64,000 bases of DNA from a bacterium (GTDB taxonomy: Bacteria > Auribacterota > UBA3054). Every line of letters starts with the position of its first letter. The first letter of the stretch is position 1. The position numbers were made by a program, and so were the translations under genes. This document shows, piece by piece, positions 2,484 to 57,027 of the stretch. The stretch lies in the NCBI GenBank assembly GCA_017557885.1, contig JAFYXV010000008.1, positions 66,843 through 130,842 of the forward strand. Reading direction: 5' to 3'. The notes beneath the pieces were generated by a model that ran no database searches, was not told the DNA's origin, and saw only the letters and a program-made list of their open reading frames with translations.

Positions 2484-2591
2484 TTTCCTGCCGGCCGCCT
2501 TTTCAAGGGCAGCATGTTCTTCGGAAACATTTTTATTTTCCCTCAAAACTGCTAAAATTAGTCAATATAAAAATAAAAAGGCGTGAAGAGC

Positions 2592-30830: not shown

Positions 30831-30880
30831 TTTGTTCTCCGTTTATTTTATTTCGTTTGTTTTATTTCCTTTGATCATTT

Positions 30881-32545: not shown

Positions 32546-32572
32546 GCTATCATTCCTTAATTAATGCCCATA

Positions 32573-41644: not shown

Positions 41645-41673
41645 TTATTTTCTTTAATCATCTTTTCAAGGAG

Positions 41674-43020
41674 GTGTGTATGGAAAATTTTGAGAAAAAC
41701 AAGGTCAAAGAGATCGATGCGAAAAGAGACACCGTAAAATTCATTGCGGTCCTCGGCTGCGTTGCCATGGGGATCGGTTTAATGCTTCTTCTCGCCAACT
41801 ATTGGCAGAGCATTCTCTCCTCCAAGTGGTTCCTTTTGTGCTGCGGCATTGCTTTGCACGGATTGGCGCTTGCGCCATCCACAAAAAAGATCTTCAAGGC
41901 TTTTCCGGAAATCCTGGCCGCCATGGGCACGACGCTCATTGGTTTCGCGCTCTGGCACCTGCTGCCTTCGCTTTGGGATGACGACACGAAAATTGGCTGC
42001 ATCCTTGTTTTTTCACTGATCGTTGGCTTCATCAGGAATTACAAACTGCATGACGTCCTCAGCTATGCGCTTGTCATGGCGCTATTCATAAAGGGGCTGA
42101 TTGGCGACAATTTCCACACAAGCTTTTATTACTTGGGAATCTTTCTGGTCATGGGCGTTTTTTCCATTAACGCTTACCTAAGGAAAAGCGTCGTATCTTT
42201 CGCCGCGGCCCTCGCCACGCTCGGCATGGCTCAGTTCATCTTCGGGAACATCCTCCCCTTCCGGCCGCTTCAGCTTTCCCTGAACGCGCTGGTCTTCTGG
42301 GGCCTGGCCTGTTCTCCGCAGATCAGGGAATTCAACGAGAAATTCTCCAAGACCGCTTACGTGATCGCTTTTCTGGAAACGTCTGTGGTTCTCTACATCC
42401 TTGCTTTCGAGGATACCTGGGAACTCGACTGGTTCAACAATCACCTGAGCCTGGCCGTCTTCAAGAAAAACATCCCCTACTCGGTCTTCACCTCTATCTT
42501 CTATATTCTGGAGCTGGCGGTCACCGCGTACGCTTTCATATTCTTCTGGAAAACCGGTCCCAAGGCCAGGGCGAAGATCACCTTCCTTATTCCCTTGACG
42601 ATAACGGTCATTTTCCTTCTTTGCAATATAGGAACGGGCACGAAAGTCGGCGACGCCTTGTATCTCCTGCCCGAGTCTTTCTACTCCAATCTCTTTTTCC
42701 TGATCTGGTTCGTTTACCTCTTCTTCAACGTCTGGGTAAGCTTCAAAGAAAGCCGCCTGCTCTTGAGAGTATTCGGGCTCGTCTTCATAGTGATCGGCGG
42801 CATAGCGAGGATAATCGTCGAGAATTCCCTGGAGGAGATCACCACCGCATTCTGTTTCATCTACGCCGGAATGGTCCTCCTCTTCACGGCCTACTGCGCT
42901 TTCAAAGTCGTCTCTGACGAAGAGGAGAAGCTGGCGGAGGAAGAAGAGAAAAAGTACGCCGAAAACTTCAAGTTCAACTCCGCCCTGAACGAGGGCGGCG
43001 CGCATGACGAAGTTCAGTGA
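41674..43020 (+). CDS. Polytopic membrane protein of unknown function (paralog B)
   Basis: AAGGAGG RBS; multi-TM; acidic C-terminal tail EEEKLAEEEEKKYAE. Confidence 0.55.
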   Translation: MCMENFEKNKVKEIDAKRDTVKFIAVLGCVAMGIGLMLLLANYWQSILSSKWFLLCCGIALHGLALAPSTKKIFKAFPEILAAMGTTLIGFALWHLLPSLWDDDTKIGCILVFSLIVGFIRNYKLHDVLSYALVMALFIKGLIGDNFHTSFYYLGIFLVMGVFSINAYLRKSVVSFAAALATLGMAQFIFGNILPFRPLQLSLNALVFWGLACSPQIREFNEKFSKTAYVIAFLETSVVLYILAFEDTWELDWFNNHLSLAVFKKNIPYSVFTSIFYILELAVTAYAFIFFWKTGPKARAKITFLIPLTITVIFLLCNIGTGTKVGDALYLLPESFYSNLFFLIWFVYLFFNVWVSFKESRLLLRVFGLVFIVIGGIARIIVENSLEEITTAFCFIYAGMVLLFTAYCAFKVVSDEEEKLAEEEEKKYAENFKFNSALNEGGAHDEVQ

Positions 43021-44326: not shown

Positions 44327-46105
44327 TTATTCTTCTTTATCCCATTCGCTCTTCGGGGCGTGGGTGTCGCGCTCCTTGCAGAGAGAGTTGATCAGAGTTT
44401 CAAGGGGCAGCGCGTTCGCCTGGGAGCCCTGGCGGGTCCTCAGCGAGACAGTCTTCTCGCTGGCTTCCTTGTCGCCCAGAACGAGCGTGTAGGGAACCTT
44501 GTCGAGTTTGCCCTGGCGGACCTTGGCGCCCATGGGGCGGTGAGTCTCGTCCACGGTCGCTCTAAGCCCGCGTTCCTGAAGAGCCGCGAGCACTTCCTTG
44601 GCGTAGTCGAGATGCGCGTCCTTGATGGGCACGATCCTGACCTGCTCCGGAGCGAGCCACAGGGGGAAGTTGCCGCCGCAGTTCTCCAGATAGACCGCGA
44701 AGAAGCGCTCTATGGCGCCCAAAAGCGCCCTGTGGATCATGTACGGCACATGTTCCTGCCCGTCTTCGCCGACATAGGTCATATTGAAGCGCTCAGGCAG
44801 GTTGAAGTCGAACTGGATGGTGGAGCACTGCCACTCGCGGCGCAGCATATCCTTGATCTTGATGTCGATCTTGGGGCCGTAGAAAGCGCCGCCGCCTTTG
44901 TCGATGTCGTACTTCAGGCCGAGCTTGGCCACGATCTTCTCCAGGGCGCTCTGAGCGGCGTTCCAGCGGCTCTCCTCGCCCACGCACTTGCCTTCCGGCC
45001 TGGTGGAGATATAGACGTGGTATTCGGTGAAACCGAAGTTGTGCAGCATCTGGAGGCAGAACCTGAGCGTTCTCTCCAATTCCTCTTCCATCTGATCTTC
45101 GCGGCAGAAGATGTGCGCGTCGTCCTGCGTAAATCCTCTCACTCTCAGAAGACCGTGCAAGACGCCGCTTCTTTCGAAACGATAGACCGTGCCGAGTTCC
45201 GCCATGCGCATGGGCAGATTGCGGTAAGAGCGGGTCTTGTTTTTGTAGATCAAAATATGGAAGGGGCAGTTCATGGGCTTCACGAAATATTCCTGAGTCT
45301 GGTCGTTGTCCAGGGGAACATCCATGGAGGGGAACATATTTTCGCGATAGAAGGAAAGGTGTCCGCTGGTCTCCCACAGGGTGGATTTTCCCACGTGCGG
45401 CGAATAGACCAGATCGTAGCCGTTCTTAAGATGCTCGTTGCGCCAGAAGTTTTCGATCTCGTTCCGGATGACGGCGCCGCGGGGATGCCAGACCATAAGG
45501 CCCGGGCCCAGCTCTTCGTGGAAGCTGCCGAGATCCATGTCCTTCAGAAGGACACGGTGGTCTCTTCTCTTGGCTTCCTCAAGATAATTCAGATATTCGT
45601 CAAGCTGAGCCTGTGTCGGAAAAGCCACGCCGTAAATGCGCTGAAGCATCGGGCGATGCTCATCGCCGCGCCAGTAGGCACCCGCAACGCTAAGGAGCTT
45701 AACGGCCTTCACGGGGCCAGTCGATTCAAGATGCGGTCCGCGGCAGAGGTCTAAGAATTCGCCCTGCTTGTAAACGGAAACTTCCTTAGCATCCAGATCT
45801 TCTATGATCTCGACCTTGTAGGTCTGGTCTTTTTCCTTGAAATATTCCAGGGCCTTTTCCCTGGGCCACTCTTCGCGCTCCAGCTTATAATCAGCCTCGG
45901 CGATCTTCTTCATTTCCTCTTCGATCTTGACTAAGTCTTCGGGAGAGAAAGGCGTCACGGTGTCGAAATCATAGTAAAAACCTTCCTCTATAGCCGGGCC
46001 GATGGCCAGCTTAACATCAGGATAAAGGCGCAGGACCGCCTGAGCCAGACAGTGGCTCGCGGTGTGCCAGAAAGTTTCACGATATTTCGGATCTTCGAAG
46101 TTCAT
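44327..46105 (-). CDS. thrS: Threonine--tRNA ligase (short form lacking the N-terminal TGS domain)
   Basis: Editing-domain HxxxH (FWHTASHCLAQAV), class II catalytic core and anticodon-binding domain; 592 aa. Confidence 0.95.
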   Translation of the reverse strand: MNFEDPKYRETFWHTASHCLAQAVLRLYPDVKLAIGPAIEEGFYYDFDTVTPFSPEDLVKIEEEMKKIAEADYKLEREEWPREKALEYFKEKDQTYKVEIIEDLDAKEVSVYKQGEFLDLCRGPHLESTGPVKAVKLLSVAGAYWRGDEHRPMLQRIYGVAFPTQAQLDEYLNYLEEAKRRDHRVLLKDMDLGSFHEELGPGLMVWHPRGAVIRNEIENFWRNEHLKNGYDLVYSPHVGKSTLWETSGHLSFYRENMFPSMDVPLDNDQTQEYFVKPMNCPFHILIYKNKTRSYRNLPMRMAELGTVYRFERSGVLHGLLRVRGFTQDDAHIFCREDQMEEELERTLRFCLQMLHNFGFTEYHVYISTRPEGKCVGEESRWNAAQSALEKIVAKLGLKYDIDKGGGAFYGPKIDIKIKDMLRREWQCSTIQFDFNLPERFNMTYVGEDGQEHVPYMIHRALLGAIERFFAVYLENCGGNFPLWLAPEQVRIVPIKDAHLDYAKEVLAALQERGLRATVDETHRPMGAKVRQGKLDKVPYTLVLGDKEASEKTVSLRTRQGSQANALPLETLINSLCKERDTHAPKSEWDKEE

Positions 46106-46233
46106 GTGACGACCTTTTTATAGTTGCTCGAAAGAGAGTTATATTTTTTTATGTTAGGAATAGATATTTTACGATAAGAGGCTTTCAAAGTCAATAAGCC
46201 TCTCCTCCTTGCCGGGATACCCCGCAAGCATGA

Positions 46234-46265
46234 AAAAAGGAGGGGCCTCACCGGCCCCTCCTTTC
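46234..46265 (-). terminator. Rho-independent terminator for the 46287..47609 gene
   Basis: AAAGGAGGGGCC-tcacc-GGCCCCTCCTTT 12-bp stem; minus strand followed by T6. Confidence 0.6.
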
Positions 46266-46286
46266 AAAGTTCAATTCTACGGACTG

Positions 46287-47609
46287 CTATCTACTTTGTT
46301 TAAGGATTTCAGAAATGATCTCGTTGAGATGTCCTGAGTTATTGGGCATGGCATCCCCTATTATGTAGTACCAATAATCTTTTTCTCTCTGGTCAAATGG
46401 CTTTTTATAATATTCCGCTATCTCCTCCGCCCACTTTTTCAAAATTTCCGGCTCCTTGGGATCCGTTCCCAGGAAGCGTACGGAGCACTCGGCGTTTTTC
46501 AAAGCCTTTTCCAAGCCCTCTTCGGCGGAAAGATTTCTGTCGTAAGCGTCTTTGTTCGCTTCCCACCAAGTCAGGACTTCTTTTTTTTCGACTTTATGAC
46601 CAAGCGACGCTTTGTCCATTTCCAAAAACAAAAGCGTTTCGTCGCCAGCATTCAAAGCTTCATATGAAAACGGCATAAGAAAAACTTCAAAGGAATGATA
46701 ATCTCTTGCTAAACCTTCAAGCACCGGTTCTCTCGCCCCATGCCTTTTAAATTCAGAAGTCCAGCAAGCGTACCATTCTTCCCAAAAATCTTTGGCATAA
46801 GCTCTGCCAATGAACCAGAAAAATCTTTGAGCTAAGCTGTTGCCTTGACCGCCAACGTCAAATTGTCCGTTTTGGCAATCTGTTTTCCTCCAGGCACCTG
46901 CAAAATCATGTTTGTCAAGACATGAAACCACGCCGTGCCCGCAATTAGGTTTCAAAAGATTCCAGCACCAGTTAAGATTGTTGGTGCCTCCGTTCGCTTT
47001 TTTTACAGCCTCGACGTCTTCATTAGCCAGCTTCTCCAATGCGTCATAGTTCATCTTTAAGCGGTAGGCGGGCCGCATGGTTTCCAATTCAAATGAATTG
47101 GGAGCGTTTTTTGCCATATCTTTCGCATAATCCACCAGCATGTTTTTCCATCCTTCCGCAGAAAAATTCTCAACCAGGCGGTAGCGAAGGAATTTTATGT
47201 TTTTGACAGAATTTGTTTTGTGTTCCACATTGCCAAAAAGCACAGGCAATTTGTTTCCATCAACACCTGTCAGAACTTCAAGTTTAGCTGAAGAATGCAA
47301 CAATCCGTCTCTGCTTCCCGGATCTGCAAAATCCACGTCGCAGCTAACAGTGAAGGATGCTTTTCCGGAAGGCGCTTTGACAAAAATATAAGAACCGCTG
47401 GAAACTGCTTCGGCGTCCACTATATCATGCCATTTGACGCGATAAATATAAGAATCGTCCAACCCGTCTAATACAACTTTATACTTAGTTACGGAGCCGC
47501 TCAAAACATAGCAGGGGCCTTCTATTTTGGCACCATATTTATCTGCAAAGACTGAAAAGCAAAAAAGTATAGCAAATAAAAAAAGTATCTTAGCTGTCTT
47601 ATTATCCAT
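46287..47609 (-). CDS. Secreted hypothetical protein encoded in a low-GC (about 45%) segment
   Basis: Signal peptide MDNKTAKILFLFAILFCFSVFA; Cys/Trp-rich central region (NLNWCWNLLKPNCGHGVVSCLDKHDF); no recognised domain. Confidence 0.5.
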   Translation of the reverse strand: MDNKTAKILFLFAILFCFSVFADKYGAKIEGPCYVLSGSVTKYKVVLDGLDDSYIYRVKWHDIVDAEAVSSGSYIFVKAPSGKASFTVSCDVDFADPGSRDGLLHSSAKLEVLTGVDGNKLPVLFGNVEHKTNSVKNIKFLRYRLVENFSAEGWKNMLVDYAKDMAKNAPNSFELETMRPAYRLKMNYDALEKLANEDVEAVKKANGGTNNLNWCWNLLKPNCGHGVVSCLDKHDFAGAWRKTDCQNGQFDVGGQGNSLAQRFFWFIGRAYAKDFWEEWYACWTSEFKRHGAREPVLEGLARDYHSFEVFLMPFSYEALNAGDETLLFLEMDKASLGHKVEKKEVLTWWEANKDAYDRNLSAEEGLEKALKNAECSVRFLGTDPKEPEILKKWAEEIAEYYKKPFDQREKDYWYYIIGDAMPNNSGHLNEIISEILKQSR

Positions 47610-47669
47610 AAAAACTGTCCTTCCTCACATGACGCGAAGCGTTGAGATTAGTTTATTTAATTCTACCAG

Positions 47670-47709
47670 AAAAAAAAAAAAGCAAGGCGCGCTGAAAAGC
47701 GCGCCTTGC
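47670..47709 (-). terminator. Rho-independent terminator for the giant PEP-CTERM gene
   Basis: GCAAGGCGCGC-tgaaaa-GCGCGCCTTGC hairpin; minus strand followed by T12. Confidence 0.7.
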
Positions 47710-47731
47710 TTAATTCGCTTATCGTTCGCTC

Positions 47732-50700
47732 TTATTTTCTGCGAAGAACGGCTATGCCGAGAAGAGCCAGCAGGAAGAGCGCGGCGGGTTCGGGGACCAC
47801 GGGCGTCAGCTTGACGCTCACGCTTTCCACGCAGACACTGTCGTTGGCAGTGCTGAGGAGCATCCTGAGGGCGTCCACGCCTTCCGTAGCCTTGACGGAG
47901 CCGCTGGTTATGGGCGCGTCAACAACGACAGGATCAGCGGCCCAGGTGAATTCCCTGAACTGCTTGTTGCCGGTCTTGGTGTTAAGTTTGACGGCGTAAT
48001 CGAAAGTTTCGCCGACGGCCGGTCTGGCGGTGGCCAAAGCGGTGGCCGGAGAGTAATCGTTGAAGGTGGGGACAAAAGCGTCGCCGCTTCTGGAGACTAC
48101 GACTTTCATCTGCCTGTGCTCGGAGTCCTGAGTGAGCGTCAGGTCGCCGGCAGGAGCTTTGGTGAAGAGCAGCTTGTAAGCGATCTCAAGATCGTATTTG
48201 TCAGCGATGCCTTCGCCGATGCCGAGAGCGTAGAAGAGGCCGCCTTCGCCGGCCGTGGGATTCTCGGAGGTCTTGGCGTATTCCAGAACGAGGCCGTCGG
48301 AGAAGGTCTGGCTCAAGTCTCCCCTGTCGGTCGCAATGGCTTCGACTTTCAGATCGTCGATATCGAAGGTGCCTTCGCCCCACTGGAAGAAGCGCAGAAT
48401 GGAGAAGGTCTGCGTCTCGTTCTCCTGGTCGCAGAGATATTCGCCGGATTCTTCGTTATTGCCGATCCTGACCTGTCTGAGGACGTGGCGGGCATGTCCT
48501 TCGCTGTCCGTAATAGTGTCGGCGCTGAAGACGGCGCTGAACTCGGTCCACTCGTCCTTTGCGATGGCGTTCTCGGAAACGAATTCCGGATGCGTCTCGT
48601 CGGACTTGTTGCTGGCGAATCTGTAGGATCCGTCGTCATAGCGGAACTGCGTTTCCACGCACTGCGGCGTCCAGAGGCCGAGGTTCTTGGCGGTGGTTCC
48701 GCCCAGTCTAACTTTGAAGCTGACCTTGAAGAAGCCCTTGGCTTTGCCGCTGGCCGCGACCCAGTCGTTGTCCAAAGTCTTGTCCAGCTTCTTGTGGATG
48801 CCGAAGAGGCCGGTAATATCTTTCAATCTAAGATATTTGTTGCCGTTCTCTTCTTTGACGATGGTGCTGCCGTTGACGTCGATGGCGCCGTAGGCCACGC
48901 TCCAGTTGTCCTCGCCGCAGAGATCCTTGCCGTTTTCATATTTCTCAAAGTCTTCCGTAAGCAGCGTGTCGTAAACTTCCCAATCGGCGGTGCTCTTAAT
49001 TTGGGCGTTGACGTCGGCTTCGCCCTTTATGTTCCGGTCGAAGAATCTGGGATCGCCCTTGGGGAACTCGGCGAAATTGGCGCTGTAAACTTCATAGCCT
49101 TTTTCCGGAGTGCCGTTGGGAGCGCCGACTCTGAAAGTGCCCTTGCCCGCTTCGCCGAGATCGATAGTTGCCAAAGTGGAGGCGTACTTCGCTTCCGCAG
49201 GCAGCGTCTTGGGCGTCACCTTGATGGACTGGAATCTCTGGAAGGTGCCGCTCGCAGGCTCAGCCCTGAAGAGATCTTCGTTCTCGAAGGAAACGCTGAA
49301 GTTGGCGGTGGTGCCAGGCAGTTCGTTGGTGATCGTGATCGTCCCGTATTCCTTGGAGAAGGTGATGGGGTCGTAATCGAGGGCAAGTATGGGAACGGAC
49401 TGCTTTTTCGGGGTGAGCTTGGCGTCCACCGCTCCCACGCGGGCCTGGCCGGAACTGAGGGAGAACTTGATCTTGTCAATGGCAGTTGTAGCGTCAGCGC
49501 CGGTAATAGGCAGATTCTCCTTGTAATAGGTGCCGTCCCAGTAGAGCTGCCTCAGGTTCTTCTCGGTGGTAGAGATGTCGTAGCCATAGGTGAACCATTC
49601 GCCGGCGTTGGCTGTGAAGGTGCCCTGCACGCCCTTGACGTTCGAATAAGTCAGGTTGACCTTGTTCTCGAAAAGCCTGAATTCCGTGGCAAACTGCTTG
49701 TGGAAGTCGTCCTGCCCGAAAGTCAGCGCTCCGTTGAAACCGGAGGGAAGCATCATCTGGGCGGCCACGGTGATGTCGTACTTCTTGGCCATGGCTTCCG
49801 TAAATCCCAGTTTGATTTCGACCGAACGCCCGTTATCGTTGCCTAAGAAGAGATCCATGGGATCCTCGTCCGGGAAGTCCAGGGTGTCGTAATCGGTCTC
49901 GGAAACGATGGTCTCGACTTTCAGATTGTCAAGGCAGAAGGTGCCGCTGCCCCAGAGGAAGAAGCGCAAGGTGTTGAAGAAGTCACTGTTGCTGCTCTGA
50001 TCGAGGAAAGCTTTGCAATTTTCAACCTTGTCGCCAACCTTGTACTGGCGCAGGATGTGGCGGTAGTTGTCCCCGGAAGCATCCGACACGGGCTTCGCCT
50101 CTATGATCATGCTGACTCTCGTCCAGCTGGCCTGGGAAATGTAATTCTGGGAAACGAACTCCGTATGGTTGGCGTCGCTGGCGTTGCTGCGGAAGCGGTA
50201 GCCGCTGCCGTTGACATACTCGAAGTTGCCCTCCACCATCTGGGGATCCCAGAGTCCGAAGAACTTGCTGGAAGTGCCGGTCAGCATGGCGTCGAAGCTG
50301 ATGCGGAAGTAGCCTTTGGCGTGGCCTTCCCACCAGTTGGGCTTCATCTGGACGTCCAGCTTTTTGTGGGCGCCGAAGAGATTGTTGACGTAGGCGATCT
50401 CGCAATATCTGTTGCCGAATCTTTCCCTGACGTAGATCGATCCGTCCCTGTCGATGGTGCCGTAGCCGCTTCCCCAGCCGCCGACGCCGCCAAGGTTGGT
50501 GTTGCCGGGATAATCTTCGAAGTCTTCGTCAAGCAAGACTTCCGTAACGTAGTGGTCGAAAGCGTAGTCAAGGTTGCCGCCGTTTTCCCAGAGGCAGTCG
50601 TAATCGCCGGGATTGCCTTTCGGGAACGTGGAGAGATCGGCGGAGTAGAGGCCGTAGCCGTCAGTTTCGTTGCCGCAGGGCGCGCCGAGGCGCACTCTCT

Positions 50701-52825
50701 TCGTGCCGGCGTAACCGGCTTCCACTTCCACCACGCATTCCAGGAACTGGGGAGTGGTGGGAAGATCGAAAGCTTCCACCTGGATCGTGGCGTCGCTCTT
50801 GAAAAGGCCTTCCACCGGGGAGATCGTGAAGTGATCGGCGCCTTTTACGATCTTGGCTTTATATTTGATGGTGGTGTTCTCGTGGCAGTTCGTCAGAGCG
50901 ATGGCGGTAAGGGTGGAGCCTATTTCCATCGGCTTGGCGGAAAGCTTAAGTTCGCCGATGCCGCAGTCCACATGGATGTCGTCGAAGTCGGCACCGCCCG
51001 AGCTGACGTCCTTGAGCCAGACAGAGCTGATGTAAACGTCGTCGGAGCCCGCGACGTAGCATTCGGTCGCGCTGTGGTACTCGTTATTGACGGACCAGCC
51101 AATGAACTCCTTGCTGTTTTCGTCAATAAAGAAGGTCCAGGTCTGCCAGCCGGTACTGATCTGCTGCAGAGTGGTGGATTTGTTGACGCTGCCGCCGGGA
51201 GTGGAAGAGCAGGCCAGGCTCAGCTTTCCGTCGCTGGTGACGTAAGCGTAGCAGAGAGCGTCCTTGGCGCCCCTGATGTCGAAGTAGGTGCCGCCGAAAG
51301 TCGGCTTGACCTTTACGCTGACCTTGTAGGTGCCGTATCCGTTGTCGGACTTGACGTTGACGGGAACCTGGAAGCCGTTGCCGCCCTGGCTGTGAAGGTA
51401 ATAGTTGCCGTTCTGTTCCTTGATCTGGCCGGTGGCGCTAAGATTGATTATGCCCTGTTGCCAGGTGGCGTCGCCCAGATAGAAGTCTTCGTCCGCTTCA
51501 AATCCGCAGTTGAATTCGGAAAGCACGGGAGGCGTGCGGTACAGAGAGGCGTACTTCCTGATCTTCTGCCAGACGGTGGCGCATCTGGTCTTGCTGTTGT
51601 AATAGACCGCGGAGCCGCCGTACTGGAGAAATTGTTCGGAGAAATAAGGCACCCTGTAGCCGTAGTAGGTGCCGTTCCAGCTGCCGTGGTAGGTCATGAT
51701 GGAAAGGCATCTCTGGGTAAGGTTGGTGGCGTAGAAGTAGCAGCCCAGGCTGTGTCCGAAAAGACCGCCGTCCGACGGTCCGGGGCTGCTCGACTGTTCG
51801 GCGGAGTGGTTGCAGCCCATGTTGTGGCCCCACTCGTGGACCCAGGAAAGATCTTCCAGATAGCTGTAGAGCACGATGTGGAAACCGCAGCCTTCCGCGC
51901 CGGTGGGGCTGCCGTGGACATAGCCTAAACCGGCCCAGCCGGAAGTCATGTATCTCGGGGCGTAGCAGACGAAGTCGGCGCCCAGCTTGTCCCTCAAGGC
52001 GGGCACGAACTCGAAGCCTTCCTTGCCCTGCTGCATGCGGGAAAGGTCAGTGCTCGAGTCCTTCGTTTCCTCGTAGTCGCAAAGGTAAGTGCCGACGCAG
52101 GTCAGCTTCGCTTTTATAAGGCTGTTCTGCATGGCCTGGTTGCAGACCGCGATGCCGGCGGCCACCTTCGTGTTGGCGGCTTCCAGACTGCCGGCGGACT
52201 CGATGGATTGGTTGGAGAAGAGGACAATGATGGTCAGCTCCACCACTTCGTCGTCGTCCCAGTTGGCGGCCCAGGCGGACTGCTCGGGAGTAAGGTCAGC
52301 GGCGGGAACGCCGAAGCTGGAAATAGAGTTCTGTTCCTCCCAGACGGGCGCTTCGTGATCCTCCGGATTGGACATCTGGGCGCAGCGCTCGCTGTAAGAA
52401 CATTCCTTAACTTCGTAAACGCCTTTCTGCTTGGTGCCGCTGATCTCGTAGCGGGCGTCGGCCGTAAGGTCTTCCACAACGCCGAAAAGCACGTTGGGGC
52501 CGGCCGCGATGCGCCACTGGCCGGCGAAATTGTCCAGATTACCGGCCCGGCAGACGATGCCGTTCACGTCTTTGACAGCGTAAGTGACGTCGCCCTTCAG
52601 TTCGCCCTGGGGCGTCAGGAAAGTCACCCTGTCGCCTATTTTAAGCTCGGCTAGGGCGAACATAGCGTTCTCGACCTTCGGCTCAGGCGCACTGGGGTAC
52701 GTCGAGAAAATTTGGGCTGTCTGAGCCCCGCTGGGGTCAAGAGTAAGGCAGAAATCCGCGGCGAAGGACGTCGCGGCAAAGATGACCGCGATAACGGCGG
52801 CCAGGATCTGGTAGTGCTTGCGCAT
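47732..52825 (-). CDS. Giant (1697 aa) PEP-CTERM-anchored secreted protein with N-terminal metzincin-type zinc metalloprotease domain and internally duplicated beta-rich domains
   Basis: Signal peptide MRKHYQILAAVIAVIFAATSFA; HEWGHNMGCNH (HExxHxxGxxH); two homologous roughly 200-aa modules (LLDEDFEDYPGNTNLGG...DNLKVE and LLTEDFEKYENGKDLCG...DDLKVE); C-terminal VPEPAALFLLALLGIAVLRRK. Confidence 0.75.
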   Translation of the reverse strand: MRKHYQILAAVIAVIFAATSFAADFCLTLDPSGAQTAQIFSTYPSAPEPKVENAMFALAELKIGDRVTFLTPQGELKGDVTYAVKDVNGIVCRAGNLDNFAGQWRIAAGPNVLFGVVEDLTADARYEISGTKQKGVYEVKECSYSERCAQMSNPEDHEAPVWEEQNSISSFGVPAADLTPEQSAWAANWDDDEVVELTIIVLFSNQSIESAGSLEAANTKVAAGIAVCNQAMQNSLIKAKLTCVGTYLCDYEETKDSSTDLSRMQQGKEGFEFVPALRDKLGADFVCYAPRYMTSGWAGLGYVHGSPTGAEGCGFHIVLYSYLEDLSWVHEWGHNMGCNHSAEQSSSPGPSDGGLFGHSLGCYFYATNLTQRCLSIMTYHGSWNGTYYGYRVPYFSEQFLQYGGSAVYYNSKTRCATVWQKIRKYASLYRTPPVLSEFNCGFEADEDFYLGDATWQQGIINLSATGQIKEQNGNYYLHSQGGNGFQVPVNVKSDNGYGTYKVSVKVKPTFGGTYFDIRGAKDALCYAYVTSDGKLSLACSSTPGGSVNKSTTLQQISTGWQTWTFFIDENSKEFIGWSVNNEYHSATECYVAGSDDVYISSVWLKDVSSGGADFDDIHVDCGIGELKLSAKPMEIGSTLTAIALTNCHENTTIKYKAKIVKGADHFTISPVEGLFKSDATIQVEAFDLPTTPQFLECVVEVEAGYAGTKRVRLGAPCGNETDGYGLYSADLSTFPKGNPGDYDCLWENGGNLDYAFDHYVTEVLLDEDFEDYPGNTNLGGVGGWGSGYGTIDRDGSIYVRERFGNRYCEIAYVNNLFGAHKKLDVQMKPNWWEGHAKGYFRISFDAMLTGTSSKFFGLWDPQMVEGNFEYVNGSGYRFRSNASDANHTEFVSQNYISQASWTRVSMIIEAKPVSDASGDNYRHILRQYKVGDKVENCKAFLDQSSNSDFFNTLRFFLWGSGTFCLDNLKVETIVSETDYDTLDFPDEDPMDLFLGNDNGRSVEIKLGFTEAMAKKYDITVAAQMMLPSGFNGALTFGQDDFHKQFATEFRLFENKVNLTYSNVKGVQGTFTANAGEWFTYGYDISTTEKNLRQLYWDGTYYKENLPITGADATTAIDKIKFSLSSGQARVGAVDAKLTPKKQSVPILALDYDPITFSKEYGTITITNELPGTTANFSVSFENEDLFRAEPASGTFQRFQSIKVTPKTLPAEAKYASTLATIDLGEAGKGTFRVGAPNGTPEKGYEVYSANFAEFPKGDPRFFDRNIKGEADVNAQIKSTADWEVYDTLLTEDFEKYENGKDLCGEDNWSVAYGAIDVNGSTIVKEENGNKYLRLKDITGLFGIHKKLDKTLDNDWVAASGKAKGFFKVSFKVRLGGTTAKNLGLWTPQCVETQFRYDDGSYRFASNKSDETHPEFVSENAIAKDEWTEFSAVFSADTITDSEGHARHVLRQVRIGNNEESGEYLCDQENETQTFSILRFFQWGEGTFDIDDLKVEAIATDRGDLSQTFSDGLVLEYAKTSENPTAGEGGLFYALGIGEGIADKYDLEIAYKLLFTKAPAGDLTLTQDSEHRQMKVVVSRSGDAFVPTFNDYSPATALATARPAVGETFDYAVKLNTKTGNKQFREFTWAADPVVVDAPITSGSVKATEGVDALRMLLSTANDSVCVESVSVKLTPVVPEPAALFLLALLGIAVLRRK

Positions 52826-52992
52826 AAAAAAACCTCCTAGGGATTATTTCATTCATTTTATCAAATTTTGGGCTTCCGGCAAATTTTGAGCCCTCCGCAC
52901 CTTGTTTCATTTTCCCTTTTTGGATAAAATAGAAAGATACTGAAATAAAATTGATAATTATGCTCACATTCATCCCACAAAGGAGAATAGTC

Positions 52993-54441
52993 ATGAAACT
53001 GCACAAATATCTCCCGGCTCTGCTCGCTGGCCTTATGTCCGTCGGCCTTTTGGCTGACGTCCTCATCAGCGAATTCACCTATGACGCCAAGAAGCCCTTT
53101 AAGAGCGACGACTGGGTGGAGATCTGCAACTACGGCGACGGCGCCGTCGATATCTCCGGCTGGAAGCTCGGCGACGACAAATACGACGAGGGCGGAACGC
53201 TGTTCACTATCCCGGAAGGCACCACTCTTGCCGCCGGCGAATGCGTAGTCCTCTATTCCGACGCGGCTTTCACCAGCATCTACCCTGACGTTGAGAATAT
53301 CCTCGGCCCCACCGGCATCGGCTTTGGCAAAAACAGCGACGACGTGGTCTTAATTGACAAGACCGGCAAAGTTCAGCACAAGATCGAATATTCCACCATC
53401 TCTGACGGCGGCGAATGGCCGGACGGCTCCGCTTATTCCAACGTGCTCGTCTATCCCTACGCCGACTACAACAACACCTGGCAGACCTGGAACGTCAGCA
53501 ACTCCGAAGGCGGCTCCCCCGGCACGAAGAATCCCGAGACCTGCGGACTCTATGTCGGCAAGCACAGCCGCAACCCCAACGCCCCCACTTCCGTCACTTC
53601 CCCCGAGATCCACATCTGGGCCTATGACAACAGCAGGAACGACAAGGCCGTAAAGAGCGCCAAGATCTTCTACTCCACTTCCGAAAGCGGCGAATACACT
53701 TCCAAGAGCATGACTTTGCTGGAAGGCAACGAATGGGTCTGCAACCTTCCCGCCATGGAAGAAGGCACCACTGTCTTCTATTATGCGCTTGTTGAAGATT
53801 ACAGCGGCAACACTCTGAGAAAATACTGGAACGCCTACAGGGCCCCCTACATGTACGTCGTCACCAACGAGCCCGTCTATTCCGGCGTCGTCATCAACGA
53901 GATCATGTACCAGTGCCTCGACATAGCCTACACCAACACGAAGGGCAACTGCAAGAACTACGAATACGTGGAGCTCTTCAACCGCACCGACGAAGACATA
54001 GACGTCAGCTACTGGCGTTTTGAGACCAGCGACGACAAGTACCGTCTGCCCAAGGACACCATCCTGGGCGCCAGGGAATTCCTGCTCATCACCGACCGCC
54101 AGGCCGCCATTGAGACCGTTTACTCTCTGCCTGTGGGCGCCGCCATCTACGAATTCGACTTCGGCCTTTCCAACACCGGCGACACTATCTCTTTGCAGAA
54201 CGCCAACGGTCAGGAAGTGGACGTTGTCACTTTCAAATCCACCGCCCCCTGGCCCACCGGCTGCGCCGGACTTGGCCCCTCTCTGGAATTGAGCGATCCC
54301 AACGCCGACAACACCCAGCCCAACGCCTGGGCCGCGTCGATCGCGATCTACGGAACTCCCTGCGAGACCAACAGCGTGCCGGAACCGGCTTTCGCCCTGA
54401 TGGCTCTGCTGGCTTTTGCCGGAGCCTTCCTCAGAAGGTAG
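52993..54441 (+). CDS. PEP-CTERM-anchored protein with two lamin-tail-domain (LTD)-like modules
   Basis: ATG at 52993 preceded by AGGAGA (track ORF TTG 52951); signal peptide MKLHKYLPALLAGLMSVGLLA; LTD-like LISEF...DDWVEICNYGDGAVDISGWKLGDD and VVINEIMYQ...YEYVELFNRTDEDIDVSYWRF; C-terminal VPEPAFALMALLAFAGAFLRR. Confidence 0.65.
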   Translation: MKLHKYLPALLAGLMSVGLLADVLISEFTYDAKKPFKSDDWVEICNYGDGAVDISGWKLGDDKYDEGGTLFTIPEGTTLAAGECVVLYSDAAFTSIYPDVENILGPTGIGFGKNSDDVVLIDKTGKVQHKIEYSTISDGGEWPDGSAYSNVLVYPYADYNNTWQTWNVSNSEGGSPGTKNPETCGLYVGKHSRNPNAPTSVTSPEIHIWAYDNSRNDKAVKSAKIFYSTSESGEYTSKSMTLLEGNEWVCNLPAMEEGTTVFYYALVEDYSGNTLRKYWNAYRAPYMYVVTNEPVYSGVVINEIMYQCLDIAYTNTKGNCKNYEYVELFNRTDEDIDVSYWRFETSDDKYRLPKDTILGAREFLLITDRQAAIETVYSLPVGAAIYEFDFGLSNTGDTISLQNANGQEVDVVTFKSTAPWPTGCAGLGPSLELSDPNADNTQPNAWAASIAIYGTPCETNSVPEPAFALMALLAFAGAFLRR

Positions 54442-54456
54442 ATCGAGAGTCGCGAA

Positions 54457-55551
54457 GTGTGGCTTTGGCTTAGATATTTCCTCATCATCGCCCTTTCCGG
54501 CGTCGTGTTGTATTTCGTTTTGCAGACCGACGTCGCCGCTTTGAAGTGTCCTTTTGAACTGGAAGCTTCCGAGCAGTGGACCATCCAGCAGGAAAGGCCC
54601 GGGGACTTTATAGCCAAGCACCTCAAGGGCCGCATGCAGGCCCTGGCGGGCGTTACGACCTTCCGCTTCGACCGCTACGACGTGGTCAACACGGAACTGG
54701 CGCCCGGCATCAAAGAAGGGTCCCTGGTCAAAGTTGGCGACCATGTCCTGACCTTCCACTCCCTCTACGACGAATCGCAGAAGAAGATGCTCCAGGCCAA
54801 GGTCGATATGTACCAGGCAACGCTGGACAATCTCCTCTCCGGCGAATTGCAGGAGCGCGTCACGGAAGGCGAAAAGCTCGTCTCCCTGGCCTACACGAAT
54901 TACTACAGCTATCTTCCCTTGGTGGAGCGCCGCCGGGAACTTTACAACACCGGCTACATCTCCAACGACGAAGTCCAGCAGGCGGAGGAAGAACTGAACA
55001 GCCGCTTCGCGGAGATCAGCGTGGCGGAGGCCGATCTGAACGCCCGCAAAATGGCCTGCTCCTCCAACGTCATCAACACGGCCAGGGCGGAGCTGCGCGT
55101 CGCTCAGAAAGAGCTTGAAATGGTCAACGACCGCCTGGAAGCCAGAACGGTTACGACTCCCGTAAACGGCCGCGTTACCCAGGTCTCCCTTGACCCGGAA
55201 ATCAAGACCATCCTAAGAGTTGTCAACGAGGATCCCATTTACGCCCGCGTAGTGGCCCCGCTGAATTTCTCCAACGAGATCCAGCCCGGCCTTGAAGCTG
55301 TCCTGTCCTTCCACAACGAAGACCTGACCGTCACCGGCAAAGTGGAATCCGTTTCCATCGTTCCGGTCCCCTTGATGGGTCTTTCCGTCGTGCACGCTCT
55401 TATTCCCATAAGGGACGTCCCCTTCTCCGCCATCTCCTCCATGACCGGCGAAGCCATCATCCCCTCCATCAAGATAGACCCTTACCACTCCTCTCTTGCG
55501 GCTCTGCGCTCTCTCTATCAGAAATTCAACAACTCCCTTCGCAAGGAGTGA
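54457..55551 (+). CDS. HlyD-family membrane fusion protein / periplasmic adaptor-like protein
   Basis: GTG start 15 nt after the upstream stop; N-terminal TM helix, coiled-coil region (QAEEELNSRFAEISVAEADLNARK...AELRVAQKELEMVNDRLEA) and beta-barrel motif TVTTPVNGRVTQVSLDP. Confidence 0.6.
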   Translation: MWLWLRYFLIIALSGVVLYFVLQTDVAALKCPFELEASEQWTIQQERPGDFIAKHLKGRMQALAGVTTFRFDRYDVVNTELAPGIKEGSLVKVGDHVLTFHSLYDESQKKMLQAKVDMYQATLDNLLSGELQERVTEGEKLVSLAYTNYYSYLPLVERRRELYNTGYISNDEVQQAEEELNSRFAEISVAEADLNARKMACSSNVINTARAELRVAQKELEMVNDRLEARTVTTPVNGRVTQVSLDPEIKTILRVVNEDPIYARVVAPLNFSNEIQPGLEAVLSFHNEDLTVTGKVESVSIVPVPLMGLSVVHALIPIRDVPFSAISSMTGEAIIPSIKIDPYHSSLAALRSLYQKFNNSLRKE

Positions 55552-55554
55552 AAA

Positions 55555-56298
55555 ATGGCGAATTTCCACGGCCGCTACGAGCTGAAGTATTTTCTTCCCT
55601 ATGACCTTATAGACAAGGCCATAGCGTACGCCTCGCCTTACGTCCAGCCAGACCAGCACGCCAAGCCCAACGGCCTGGGCGTTCCCGGCTACACCATCCG
55701 CTCCGTTTATTTTGACGACGACAACCTGACGCTTTACAAAGAAAAACTCATAGGCTTGAAAGACCGCAGAAAATTCCGCGTCAGGGGCTACGCCAACGTC
55801 ACGCCCGACAACAACGTTTTCCTGGAAATAAAATACCGCTCCCGTCAGCAGGTCGGCAAGGACCGCGCGCCCATGAAATTAAGCGAACTTCAGGAGATCA
55901 TGGACCGCAGCAAGACTCTCGACGAAGTAGAGTTTCCCACCGACTACCTGAGGGCCAACGCCCACCGCTTCCTGCACAACTGCTTCGTCAAAGGGTATCG
56001 TCCCATGACCACCGTCATCTACGACCGCAACCCCTTCATCGGAAAAGACGACGGCGAAGTCAGGTTCACCATCGACACGAACCTCAGGGCCGTGGATCAC
56101 TCCTATTCCTACACGCTTTTCGAACCCTACGAGGAAGAGCAGATCGCGCTTCCCGGAGCCATATTGGAACTGAAATTCGACCGCCTCATGCCGGAATGGA
56201 TGCGGCGCTTTTTAACCAAATTCGAGATCACCCAGACTTCCATATCCAAATACGCGCACTGCATAGAAAAAGTAATATTGCGCGAGGAGGAAAGTTAA
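55555..56298 (+). CDS. VTC-domain protein (CYTH-like, polyphosphate-polymerase-domain family)
   Basis: N-terminal RYELKYFLPYD...RSVYFDDDNL...RRKFRVRGYANVTPDNNVFLEIKYRSRQ pattern typical of bacterial VTC domain proteins; 3-nt gap from the upstream gene. Confidence 0.6.
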   Translation: MANFHGRYELKYFLPYDLIDKAIAYASPYVQPDQHAKPNGLGVPGYTIRSVYFDDDNLTLYKEKLIGLKDRRKFRVRGYANVTPDNNVFLEIKYRSRQQVGKDRAPMKLSELQEIMDRSKTLDEVEFPTDYLRANAHRFLHNCFVKGYRPMTTVIYDRNPFIGKDDGEVRFTIDTNLRAVDHSYSYTLFEPYEEEQIALPGAILELKFDRLMPEWMRRFLTKFEITQTSISKYAHCIEKVILREEES

Positions 56299-56301
56299 TT
56301 T

Positions 56302-57027
56302 ATGAATCAGACTGCCGAATATGAAATGATGCAGTGGACGCTGAACGCCCTGGCGCCGACCACCTGGATAGACGTGGTCAACAACTTCGCCGTGGCCGCG
56401 CTCTTCGCGTTCCTCTTGGTTTTGCTCTACCGCTTCTGCCGCGGCGTGCACGGCAACAAGACCTTCATGCAAACGCTGGTCATGATGGAGATCATCATAA
56501 CGCTTGTGATGATGGTCATCCTGAATGTCCGCGGCTCCTCCGCCGTGGCCGTGGCTTTCGGGTTGATGGGCGCCATGAGCGTTGTCCGCTTCCGCACCAT
56601 CATAAAGGATAACCGCGACACTGCCTTCGTCTTCATGGCCGTGGCCCTGGGCATGGCCGCCGGCACCGGCCAGCACAGGATCGGCGCCATCGGCTTCGTC
56701 ATCATCTGGCTCTCCTTCGTCTTCACGGAATACACTCCCTGGAGCCTCCGCCACAGAGAGATCATCGCCAAGATCATCTTCAGCACCGAAAATTCCGAGA
56801 GCAAGCTTGATTCTGGCGCTGAGATCATGGGCCGCATGAAGCAATTGGGCACCTCCATAAAAATGCTGCACTCCCGCACCATAAAATCCGGCACCGCCAT
56901 CGAGGCCACCTACTCCTTCCGTCTGAGATTCAGAGTCAGCGAGGAATACGCCACCGCCCAGCTGATGGGCTTAAAGTGCGTGGAATCCGTCAGCCTCTTC
57001 TCACCTTCAGAAGTCGAGGAGCCCTGA
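56302..57027 (+). CDS. DUF4956-like membrane protein (usual partner of bacterial VTC-domain proteins)
   Basis: Multi-TM; GLMGAMSVVRFRTIIKDNRDTAFVFMAVALGMAAGTG resembles the DUF4956 core. Confidence 0.55.
   Translation: MNQTAEYEMMQWTLNALAPTTWIDVVNNFAVAALFAFLLVLLYRFCRGVHGNKTFMQTLVMMEIIITLVMMVILNVRGSSAVAVAFGLMGAMSVVRFRTIIKDNRDTAFVFMAVALGMAAGTGQHRIGAIGFVIIWLSFVFTEYTPWSLRHREIIAKIIFSTENSESKLDSGAEIMGRMKQLGTSIKMLHSRTIKSGTAIEATYSFRLRFRVSEEYATAQLMGLKCVESVSLFSPSEVEEP

Follow-up and report, generated by a model that had tools for sequence, protein, structure and literature searches.

Known metzincins with accessory domains and the PEP-CTERM system

CpaA of Acinetobacter has been characterized as an adamalysin-like metzincin glycoprotease whose tandem Ig-like beta-sandwich repeats resemble glycan binders (PMC7542363). 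For Mep72 of Pseudomonas aeruginosa a Sec signal, a metzincin domain and, subsequent to it, tandem carbohydrate-binding modules (CBMs) were reported (PMC4334185), and proBFT-3 was found to combine an adamalysin-like catalytic domain with a prodomain of comparable length, about 190 residues (PMC9514063). For substrates of the PEP-CTERM/exosortase system, the features listed by Haft et al. [quoted passage not shown]

Surface proteases of uncultured rumen bacteria have hardly been studied, and well-understood cargo of the PEP-CTERM/exosortase pathway is still lacking. The gene described here, located within an analysed stretch of 64,000 nucleotides (the window), most likely encodes a zinc protease carried at the cell surface by a long stalk whose domains are of sugar-binding type. 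It would offer a concrete exosortase cargo in which a recognisable enzyme head is joined to a lectin-like stalk modelled with confidence, and which could serve to test the effect of exosortase sorting on a large enzyme.

The gene and its signals

Direct reading of the minus strand recovered the open reading frame reported in the earlier note at 47732..52825, with an ATG start and a product of 1697 aa and about 185 kDa, comprising seven accessory domains and an extra N-terminal domain (Table 1). Identical copies of the 1697-aa protein were found on 12 contigs of up to 1.4 Mb, hence ruling out an assembly or gene-fusion artefact: the gene is real and derives from an uncultured rumen bacterium. 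The identical NCBI entry (MBR5624809.1) carries the name 'hypothetical protein'.

Table 1. Positions of the gene's signals, of the encoded domains and of the divergent neighbour within the window.
Feature	Position	Strand	Basis
Promoter-like site: TTGCCG, 16 nt, TAAAAT; TG before the -10 hexamer	52855..52882	(-)	consensus scan
Ribosome-binding site AGGAGG	52833..52838	(-)	7 nt upstream of ATG; direct reading
Signal peptide, aa 1-23: MRKHYQILAAVIAVIFAATSFA, cleavage before AD	52757..52825	(-)	basic n-region, hydrophobic core, A-x-A site
N-terminal beta domain and linker, aa 24-190	52256..52756	(-)	model; co-occurrence in relatives
Reprolysin/adamalysin-like metzincin catalytic domain, aa 191-436	51518..52255	(-)	Pfam; profile versus PDB; Foldseek
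Zinc-binding motif HEWGHNMGCNH, aa 330-340	51806..51838	(-)	direct reading
Met-turn candidate SIMTY, aa 375-379	51689..51703	(-)	conservation
JR0, probable LamG/ConA-like jelly roll, aa 437-622	50960..51517	(-)	Foldseek of model 1
Super-module 1, aa 623-1142: Ig-like (623-716), linker, JR1 (763-975), C1 (976-1142)	49400..50959	(-)	
Super-module 2, aa 1143-1676: Ig2 (1143-1235), linker, JR2 (1287-1499), C2 (1500-1676)	47798..49399	(-)	
PEP-CTERM-type sorting signal VPEPAALFLLALLGIAVLRRK, aa 1677-1697	47735..47797	(-)	motif; Pfam/TIGR02595 scores; conservation
Intrinsic-terminator-like hairpin and T-run	47670..47711	(-)	14-bp stem, 9 G-C pairs, 4-nt loop
Lamin-tail-domain (LTD) neighbour with its own PEP-CTERM tail (SVPEPAFALMALLAFAGAFLRR)	52993..54441	(+)	Pfam LTD E 2.1e-34; tail by pattern

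The site upstream of the gene is a promoter candidate, as judged by its promoter-like spacing and hexamers. Its TTTG(A/G)TAAAAT part is kept upstream of the gene in all of the loci L001-L008, and promoter-like matches are as frequent in the region as chance would predict. A sigma-54-type GG-N10-GC upstream element (GGCTCAAAATTTGC) was considered and rejected, as it is not kept in L002 and L005-L007. Downstream of the gene, the strong T12-terminated hairpin proposed earlier was confirmed, whereby two of the 12 consecutive T residues lie within the stem. The signal peptide was assigned by eye from the sequence; anchoring as a lipoprotein was rejected, as C26 is not preceded by a lipobox (the sequence there is AADFC).

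At the C-terminus a VPEP motif is followed by the TM helix AALFLLALLGIAVL and by RRK at the extreme end, and P1678, E1679, P1680 and K1697 are invariant in 10 full-length homologs. The PEP-CTERM anchoring claimed in the earlier note thus stands as far as the PEP/TM/basic-tail layout and the N-terminal signal are concerned, but the scores of this copy fall just under both cut-offs (Pfam PF07589, 16.3 bits against 20.7; TIGR02595, 15.4 against 16). In NCBI, the orthologs MBP5628075.1 and MBR4466430.1 bear the name 'PEP-CTERM sorting domain-containing protein'. Three PEP-CTERM tails are found within the 64-kb window, and no exosortase was identified among its scanned ORFs.

The probable metzincin head

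The extended zinc motif HExxHxxGxxH of the metzincin clan (MA(M)) is matched by HEWGHNMGCNH, the full consensus that the earlier note had read here. The entire motif is invariant among the 10 full-length homologs, and H330, E331, G333, H334, N335, G337, C338, N339 and H340 are invariant throughout a 14-sequence set including distant relatives; the HExxH histidines, on whose conservation the metzincin assignment had been made to depend, are hence kept in 14/14 sequences, down to relatives of 24-30% identity. In the same set and over the same range of identity M377 and Y379 of the candidate Met-turn are invariant, whereby M377 is located 37 residues past H340 in a part of the model with pLDDT <50. 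The SIMTY context resembles the SxMxY Met-turn of astacins and serralysins. Adamalysins carry Asn after the second zinc histidine and characteristically Asp after the third (HExxHxxGxxHD); the latter mark is absent here, the residue in question being Ser341, retained by all 10 full-length homologs; distant relatives have Ser or Ala.

Upon application of gathering cut-offs, all three Pfam Reprolysin models reached their thresholds, in support of the earlier assignment: Reprolysin_5 (PF13688) with 34.2 bits (cut-off 27), Reprolysin_4 (PF13583) with 26.3 (22) and Reprolysin_3 (PF13582) with 22.4 (22.4). When searched against PDB sequences, a profile of the head and the N-terminal domain matched CpaA (E 4.4e-4) and then snake-venom metalloproteinases (SVMPs), and a search with the head sequence alone gave no meaningful match. 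Among the NCBIfam models, that of Mep72 (NF052434) matched best (E 6.5e-13, aa 199-396); this partial match scores 48.1 bits, far below the equivalog cut-off of 645, and the protein is hence not Mep72. The CpaA model (NF033511) scores 24.6 bits against a cut-off of 750.

Modelling of aa 24-640 from the 14-sequence alignment yielded a poor model (mean pLDDT 55; <50 through most of the catalytic domain's second half), and all statements on the head fold are hence of low resolution. With this model as query, adamalysin-type metzincins (MPII, CpaA, ADAM8/22/33 and SVMPs) make up the majority of the 40 Foldseek matches at E<=1e-3, the rest being jelly rolls that match JR0. The protease domain evolves under omega values of 0.12-0.14, the lowest among the domains of the protein bar JR1. 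Judged by motif, profiles and conservation, the head is most likely an adamalysin/reprolysin-like metzincin protease domain, for which catalysis is predicted.

The N-terminal domain

The domain preceding the head is modelled with a pLDDT of about 84 for aa ~53-148 and has no Pfam match. Relatives of 24-35% identity possess it together with the catalytic domain, and its residues G64, N88, G89, G102 and E146 are invariant. Relatives of this part of the protein were found in Kiritimatiellales and Acidobacteriota, among others. Between both domains (model residues 129-165) pLDDT drops below 50, and this part could be a flexible linker; an invariant WDDDE is located at aa 189-193, immediately ahead of the first strand of the catalytic domain. 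The top Foldseek match was metalloproteinase II (MPII) of B. fragilis (PDB 4on1; E 1.8e-7), a chain of 334 residues to which 365 columns align at 10% identity, the query model being of low confidence. This chain we take to be the zymogen, i.e., prodomain plus catalytic domain, in which case the match would span both. Considering this low-resolution fold match and the co-occurrence in relatives, aa 24-190 are probably a prodomain or an intramolecular chaperone. Short chains of the CpaA structure 6o38, presumably CpaB, match a part of about 110 residues of the head model in the Foldseek search, so that the N-terminal domain may be the fused counterpart of a CpaB-like chaperone/inhibitor.

The duplicated stalk

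C-terminal to the catalytic domain, the stalk comprises about 1240 residues. When the protein was split and its parts compared, modules 1 and 2 were found to share 34% identity over 516 aa (E 2e-90), and domain-by-domain hhalign comparison between them gave probabilities of 98.5-100% (JR1 with JR2: 100%, E 1.9e-57). The internal duplication described earlier is hence real, and both quoted module ends (FEDYPGN...LRFFLWGSGTFCLDNLKVE and FEKYENG...LRFFQWGEGTFDIDDLKVE) are present and homologous, but the repeated unit has about 520 aa, not about 200. The jelly-roll likeness proposed for the modules was borne out as well: JR1 and JR2 take the ConA-like (LamG-like) fold, their structure models revealing a curved two-sheet beta jelly roll that can be superposed on lectin, CBM and GH16 domains. 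C1 forms the second beta-sandwich of super-module 1. For JR0, Foldseek matches comprise neurexin LNS, laminin LG, galectin and PL7 jelly rolls at a pLDDT of only 50-63, its hhalign match to JR2 is weak (probability 20%, E 1e-3), and no Pfam match passes its cut-off.

Profile-profile comparison revealed no significant similarity between JR and C domains, nor between JR0 and JR1, C1 or C2; a single sequence family for all seven accessory domains is therefore not claimed. Scanned singly against Pfam, every accessory domain stayed at noise level, none has a Pfam or CBM sequence match, and a PDB sequence search with the module profile gave no meaningful match. Ig1 and Ig2 match Ig_CFAP65_4th alone and weakly (E 0.02-0.11) and no BACON family; the homologous Ig domain of the relative P0021 matches BACON_2 with 30.4 bits (cut-off 25). 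In an exhaustive search of 1.84 billion representative proteins, only 26 relatives of the module were found. As they lack a Pfam family and have so few relatives, the stalk domains would define new domain families.

Relatives and exchange of module 2

All module relatives whose C-termini were read end in PEP-CTERM tails; some carry a subtilisin head, and others, such as P0021-P0029, consist of stalk modules alone. Full-length homologs were found only in ruminant-gut MAGs of the uncultured lineage UBP3, where the full-length protein is conserved in at least 49 cluster members. Two of the subtilisin-headed relatives, P0014 and P0015, score 450-490 bits in an hmmsearch with the module alignment, and P0014 stems from the same metagenome sample as the metzincin homolog P0009 (49% identity).

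Compared with P0004-P0008, module 2 is 51-53% identical, as against 79-85% for the head and module 1, and C2 shows omega values of 0.67-0.95 as compared to those of the protease domain. P0002 was identified as a recombinant; the breakpoint is clean and module 2 occurs in discrete allelic types. By these alignments, the membrane-proximal module 2 is a hypervariable, recombining cassette that is swapped between strains. Its breakpoint and allelic types resemble antigenic or phage-receptor variation, and the locus may serve as a strain marker and as a handle on cell-surface selection in the rumen.

The divergent LTD-VTC operon

As the earlier note had it, the promoter region of the gene is divergent from an LTD/VTC operon, the ATG of the LTD gene at 52993 being separated from the metzincin gene by a spacer of 167 bp. 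The operon consists of the LTD gene, a gene for a 364-aa protein, VTC and DUF4956, in this order. The divergent pairing is kept in all eight close loci (L001-L008) and also at L038, the locus of the 49%-identical homolog, with operon proteins at 66-79% identity and a different flank on the opposite side. The LTD protein of either genome also bears a PEP-CTERM tail.

Proposed mechanism and alternatives

The explanation preferred here, to which a probability of roughly 0.7 is assigned, is that of a monocistronic, Sec-exported metzincin with a putative prodomain, a lectin-like stalk, exosortase-dependent sorting and a swappable membrane-proximal module. The gene would be transcribed on its own and its product exported via Sec as a multidomain zinc endopeptidase with an adamalysin/reprolysin-like head. 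After removal of the signal peptide, aa 24-190 would probably keep the catalytic domain latent until they are cleaved off. Zinc is expected to be coordinated by H330, H334 and H340, whereby E331 would serve as general base and M377 would form the Met-turn. The stalk, i.e., one LamG-like jelly roll followed by two super-modules each made up of an Ig-like domain, a ConA-like jelly roll and a second lectin-like sandwich, most likely extends the protease off the outer membrane through the cell's own polysaccharide layer, and, judged by its fold, may bind glycans of the substrate or of the own matrix. Going by the family definition, the VPEP/TM/RRK tail would be handed over to an exosortase, cleaved at PEP and attached or retained at the cell surface or in the exopolysaccharide (EPS). 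The exchange of the super-module 2 cassette would fit a surface-exposed part under diversifying pressure or in co-evolution with a strain-specific surface glycan. Against this explanation stand the poor head model (mean pLDDT 55), by which the metzincin fold and the Met-turn geometry remain predictions, the PEP-CTERM scores just below cut-off, the lack of an exosortase in the 64-kb window, Ser341 in place of Asp and, for the prodomain, the low resolution of the fold match.

As a refinement rather than an exclusion of this explanation, the protein may act as an O-glycoprotease the way CpaA or StcE do; its lectin-like modules would recognise heavily glycosylated proteins, and its head would cut beside glycosylated residues. 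Salivary or host mucins, plant arabinogalactan proteins or extensins, and protozoal or bacterial surface glycoproteins would be candidate substrates. This is rather unlikely given the CpaA family score (24.6 against 750), the Ig-like nature of the CpaA repeats as opposed to the ConA-like jelly rolls found here, and the fact that ConA-like folds often serve as plain spacers or protein binders. Similarly doubtful is that the catalytic domain becomes a soluble exoprotease by autoprocessing, with the stalk staying behind on surface or matrix. Here Mep72 serves as precedent, as processing frees its metzincin domain from two CBMs and as Mep72 autodegrades in vitro (PMC4334185); it is also the best NCBIfam match, though a partial one, and model residues 129-165 could provide the flexible linker. 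However, a stalk of 1240 residues with a sorting signal, maintained at full length in at least 49 members, would be a costly leaving group, the Mep72 model gives 48 bits where 645 are required, and no processing site was identified. That the protein is a pseudo-protease, i.e., an adhesin binding solely via its lectin-like domains, would agree with most of its mass being binding-type folds and with relatives made of stalk modules only, but is highly improbable, as 14 of 14 sequences, distant relatives among them, retain the catalytic Glu, the three zinc histidines and the Met-turn Met, and omega is lower in the protease domain than anywhere else bar JR1.

Two wider readings extend beyond the single protein. 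As suggested in the earlier note, metzincin gene and divergent operon (LTD, 364-aa, VTC, DUF4956) may form one co-regulated surface system; the pairing in all eight close loci and, despite a differing opposite flank, at L038, together with the PEP-CTERM nature of LTD in both genomes, makes this a tentative possibility. Yet neither a shared operator nor an inverted repeat was identified, the sole conserved upstream element is the -10-like box on the metzincin side, the promoter scan stays at chance level, and outside the close cluster the comparison covered a single genome, synteny alone being no proof. Less likely still is a joint reading, according to which the super-module of about 520 aa is an uncatalogued, lineage-restricted PEP-CTERM 'display cassette' exchanged between strains, and the N-terminal domain a fused CpaB/BamI-type chaperone-inhibitor. 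Such a cassette would take different heads, a metzincin here and, in other proteins, a subtilisin (S8) or a pectate-lyase-like beta-helix. The copy next to the membrane would be exchanged as discrete allelic types, of which there are at least four (A, B, C and D), with docking onto, or co-exposure with, a strain-specific surface polysaccharide as the cause.

Comparison with known systems

Enzyme class, lectin-stalk architecture and sorting signal are all of already known kinds, and general principles are unchanged by this locus. CpaA, solved together with its chaperone CpaB (PDB 6o38), is the best solved relative by profile, in the catalytic domain, and a top fold match. Like CpaA, the protein combines a metzincin head with tandem beta-sandwich repeats, but these are ConA-like jelly rolls located C-terminal to the head; in CpaA the catalytic domain resides at residues 375-536 of 578, as revealed by the sequence match. 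CpaA is released via the type II system and depends on a separate membrane chaperone, whereas this protein ends in a PEP-CTERM tail and no chaperone gene lies next to its own. Mep72 (PA2783) has 65 kDa, two CBMs, the partner inhibitor BamI and no PEP-CTERM signal, as compared to about 185 kDa and seven accessory domains in this protein. The layout of proBFT-3 is comparable to aa 24-190 plus 191-436, but fragilysin possesses neither stalk nor sorting signal, and no counterpart of its aspartate-switch residue was identified here. With the M12B family (SVMPs and ADAMs) the protein has HExGHNxGxxH, the Asn after the second His and many fold matches in common; it differs in the Ser after the third His, the SIMTY Met-turn context, the lack of disintegrin and Cys-rich domains and its bacterial domain context.

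The subtilisin-headed metagenomic relatives P0014, P0015, P0019 and P0020 share Ig, jelly-roll and second-sandwich modules and the PEP-CTERM tail, but their head is a Peptidase_S8 and not a metzincin, and their second module is devoid of the large jelly roll. The sigma-54 upstream element of proteobacterial PEP-CTERM genes is not conserved at this locus; all those features of PEP-CTERM proteins and genes that are listed above from PMC1569441 are shared by this gene.

Gene, source and genomic setting

The 1697-aa reading frame and the T12-terminated hairpin on its 3' side, both proposed in the earlier note, were found in the sequence as claimed. AGGAGG is located 7 nt 5' of the metzincin ATG, and about 20 nt beyond the stop codon a 14-bp G+C-rich hairpin leads into 12 consecutive T, two of which are counted within the stem. 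The identical protein is carried by 12 public contigs of up to 1.4 Mb, which rules out an assembly artefact as the source of this ORF and identifies it as a real, unannotated gene (GenBank MBR5624809.1, 'hypothetical protein [bacterium]'). The nearest genomic matches are MAGs from forestomachs of water buffalo, goat, yak and sheep, next to the unclassified candidate-phylum 'bacterium UBP3_UBA3054'. The window has the make-up of an ordinary chromosomal region, encoding ThrRS, RuvAB, RF-1, HisG, GAPDH, PGK and SurA-type chaperones, whereby the latter argue for a diderm envelope.

A spacer of 167 bp separates the metzincin from the LTD operon upstream, and the divergent arrangement assigned to the two before is kept in all eight close homologous loci. 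L038, the locus of a 49%-identical metzincin, has the same pairing, with 66-79% identity for the operon proteins and an unrelated opposite flank. Conservation at this distance goes beyond what could be learnt from the close loci, yet it is not evidence of co-regulation. Upstream, conservation is confined to one element, TTTG(A/G)TAAAAT, which resembles an extended -10 box and lies on the side of the metzincin; a sigma-54-like motif upstream of the metzincin was rejected as it is not conserved. Within the operon, the LTD protein possesses two LTD stretches and a PEP-CTERM tail, the VTC domain is polyphosphate-polymerase-like, and the LTD protein evolves faster than its partners (81-83% vs 93-98% identity in L005-L007).

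Further loci of the window are collected in the table. The 440-aa ORF next to the metzincin is confined to the window and the close locus L002, where it is partial; as ThrRS directly follows the metzincin in L001 and L004-L007, it is a strain-variable insertion. The tandem DUF2157-like pair is another strain-variable envelope locus: its first member is only 57% identical to the counterpart in L001, whose genome is otherwise 93-99% identical, and L005-L007 possess a close counterpart only for the second copy. The genes at 30033-34192 may constitute another secreted degradative cluster.

Features of the window and of one related locus
Feature	Position	Strand	Description
968-aa protein	2583-5489	+	Sub-threshold PEP-CTERM as sole Pfam match
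1189-aa protein	6699-10268	-	N-terminal GtrA/DPMS transmembrane domain sole recognised part; remainder ~1000 residues
Three genes in a row	30033-34192	-	BSP-family peptidase (265 aa), 554-aa protein without family, GH20C C-terminal-domain protein
SNF-family pair	37100-40197	+	Two adjacent, slightly overlapping sodium:neurotransmitter symporter genes; paralogs ~43-44% identical
DUF2157-like pair	40322-43020	+	Two tandem membrane proteins (440 and 448 aa)
Low-GC stretch	46001-48000		GC 0.455; contains the 440-aa ORF
440-aa ORF	46287-47609	-	Between metzincin and ThrRS; signal-peptide-like N-terminus, no Pfam family
Metzincin ORF	47732..52825	-	1697 codons, ATG start
Codons for metzincin aa 185-199	~52229-52273	-	Invariant stretch
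LTD operon	52993-57027	+	LTD protein, 364-aa protein without family, VTC-domain protein, DUF4956
P0014	8001-12524 of L039		S8-headed relative

Reprolysin-like head

The zinc-binding consensus noted earlier, HEWGHNMGCNH, locates to aa 330-340 and is joined by SIMTY at aa 375-379; Reprolysin_5, Reprolysin_4 and Reprolysin_3 all reach Pfam gathering scores across aa 207-387. The zinc motif shows no substitution at any position in ten full-length homologs, and in a 14-sequence set, which takes in four head-only relatives of 24-30% identity, H330, E331, G333, H334, N335, G337, C338, N339, H340, M377 and Y379 are invariant, hence the proposed zinc ligands are conserved down to that distance. A PDB-sequence search with a profile of N-terminal domain and head returned CpaA (E 4.4e-4), followed by snake-venom adamalysins. 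AlphaFold gave a poor model for aa 24-640 (mean pLDDT 55), so that the fold was tested at low resolution only; its Foldseek matches are nevertheless mostly adamalysin-type metzincins, i.e., B. fragilis metalloproteinase II, CpaA, ADAM8/22/33, VAP-1 and SVMPs. The earlier note, whose reading largely holds, had named two results that would refute it, lack of a metzincin fold or histidines that vary among homologs; neither was obtained, the first as judged at this low resolution. The third zinc His is followed by Ser, a position at which Asp is typical of adamalysins, and the SxMxY context of the candidate Met-turn resembles astacins and serralysins, for which reasons the head was named 'reprolysin-like' and not a canonical M12B enzyme.

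N-terminal domain

Residues ~53-148 form a confidently predicted beta domain (pLDDT ~84) for which the Pfam scan returned no match. The N-terminal domain travels with the catalytic domain in distant relatives, several of its residues being invariant. The Foldseek match to MPII spans 365 columns vs a 334-residue chain, which we take to be the zymogen, i.e., prodomain plus catalytic domain, and several short 6o38 chains, presumably the CpaB chaperone, match ~110 residues of the aa 24-640 model. In proBFT-3, a prodomain of ~190 residues, comparable to the metzincin N-terminal domain, blocks the cleft via an aspartate switch (PMC9514063), and the active site of CpaA is filled by the tail of CpaB (PMC7542363). 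We infer that aa 24-190 serve as prodomain or intramolecular chaperone, and the switch residue may be C148 or lie in WDDDE (aa 189-193), which is invariant. The surrounding stretch, WAANWDDDEVVELTI at aa 185-199, directly precedes the first catalytic-domain strand and is invariant in the family; its WDDDE core is kept in the relatives P0010 and P0011 (35% identity) and absent from P0012 and P0013. A role as metal site or latency element is conceivable for this stretch.

A duplicated and recombining stalk

Internally duplicated modules of about 200 aa had been described for the region following the head; the duplication is real, but its unit is larger, as aa 623-1142 (module 1) and aa 1143-1676 (module 2) align end-to-end with 34% identity across 516 residues (E 2e-90). 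Within the two modules, three domains in succession match their respective counterparts (hhalign probabilities of 98.5% for Ig1/Ig2, 100% for the jelly rolls JR1/JR2 and 99.3% for C1/C2), which documents tandem duplication of a three-domain super-module; this event predates the family because the 49%-identical homolog has both copies. The module 1 model, for which 33 sequences of module copies and their remote relatives were aligned, is confident (pLDDT 94.1, pTM 0.80), and Foldseek favours tandem pairs (laminin LG4-5, the Gas6 LG pair, tandem galectins), which indicates a lectin-like sandwich in JR1 and another, directly following it, in C1. As far as the fold is concerned, the earlier description as jelly-roll or carbohydrate-binding-like was therefore correct. 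For JR0 (aa 437-622, after the protease), matches to LamG, galectin and PL7 jelly rolls come from the poor model, and the lectin-like character of the stalk is thus modelled with confidence for module 1 and tentatively for JR0, its function being putative. None of the accessory domains matches a family in Pfam scans of the metzincin, and a relative's homolog of the Ig-like domain matches BACON_2.

In the three complete loci with a ~70%-identical metzincin (L004, L006, L007), identity is 90-98% for most flanking genes (ThrRS 97%) and 78-86% for the DUF2157 and SNF membrane proteins. Here dS is similar (0.76-0.83 for the metzincin vs 0.48-0.83 for neighbours), dN of the metzincin is several times above that of most neighbours, and omega amounts to ~0.27-0.28 vs 0.02-0.19. 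The excess divergence sits mainly in module 2: C2 is 38-40% identical with an omega of 0.67-0.95, the protease domain 80% identical with 0.12-0.14. At least four types of module 2 exist, A (window, P0001-P0003), B (P0004-P0007), C (P0008) and D (P0009). The homolog P0002 shares 94-97% identity with P0004 and P0005 in head and module 1; in module 2 its identity to these two drops to 52-53%, but reaches 91-97% to the window protein and P0003, with the switch point near aa 1100-1150. These incongruent identities provide direct evidence that recombination took place where the modules meet, and at the level of sequence they show module 2 to behave as an exchangeable cassette. It may be speculated that this variable, membrane-proximal module co-evolves with a strain-specific surface glycan.

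Full-length homologs are rare, with only nine (49-97% identity) in 5.8 billion clusters, and an exhaustive HMMER search of 1.84 billion representatives with the module profile returned 26 proteins at E<=1e-3; P0001-P0009 themselves score above 800 bits with this profile. Among the 26, P0014, P0015, P0019 and P0020 carry the same modules behind a Peptidase_S8 head, P0021-P0029 consist of repeated jelly-roll and Ig units alone, and P0024 and P0025 have a weak pectate-lyase-like match and one jelly roll; a PEP-CTERM-type tail ends all of the proteins named here. As the modules thus occur behind different heads, the stalk appears to behave as a display or binding unit that is reused for PEP-CTERM cargo within a narrow group of organisms. 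The second module of the S8 relatives consists of Ig and C only, without the large jelly roll, and P0014 and the metzincin homolog P0009 come from the same metagenome sample (ERZ28573638).

Putative sorting signal and suggested mechanism

The passages of Haft et al. (2006, PMC1569441) on PEP-CTERM define it by three parts and describe most of its genes as single-gene units; all three parts are present in the metzincin C-terminal end, VPEPAALFLLALLGIAVLRRK, and the gene likewise forms such a unit and has a terminator of its own. The PEP is invariant across the family, and NCBI names two orthologs 'PEP-CTERM sorting domain-containing protein'. The anchoring proposed earlier is suggested by the tail; the latter scores marginally under both PEP-CTERM HMM thresholds, and the scanned ORFs of the 64-kb window encode no exosortase. 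Two further PEP-CTERM-type tails are found in the window, those of the LTD protein and of the 968-aa protein, the latter being the third in 64 kb and reading VVPEPAAAALLLLGLALFRRK followed by 8 extra residues.

The suggested mechanism assumes that the metzincin is exported by Sec, as its N-terminus MRKHYQILAAVIAVIFAATSFA|AD looks by eye like a Sec signal peptide, and that the N-terminal domain might possibly confer latency. The head would then very probably carry out zinc-dependent endoproteolysis, for which invariant catalytic residues and family membership strongly argue, while the lectin-like domains would form a stalk and the tail would mediate exosortase-dependent retention at the surface. 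As a rival or refinement, a CpaA-like preference for glycoproteins is reasonable; the NCBIfam model of CpaA matches the metzincin partially and far below threshold (24.6 vs 750). Another such alternative is release of the head by autoprocessing, for which Mep72 provides a precedent (PMC4334185), the Mep72 model again matching partially and far below threshold (48 vs 645 bits).

As compared to known systems, metzincins with modules of carbohydrate-binding type are a known kind, and so is the sorting signal; new here are the accessory-domain families, which are uncatalogued, and a stalk common to different heads, one module of which is recombining and hypervariable.
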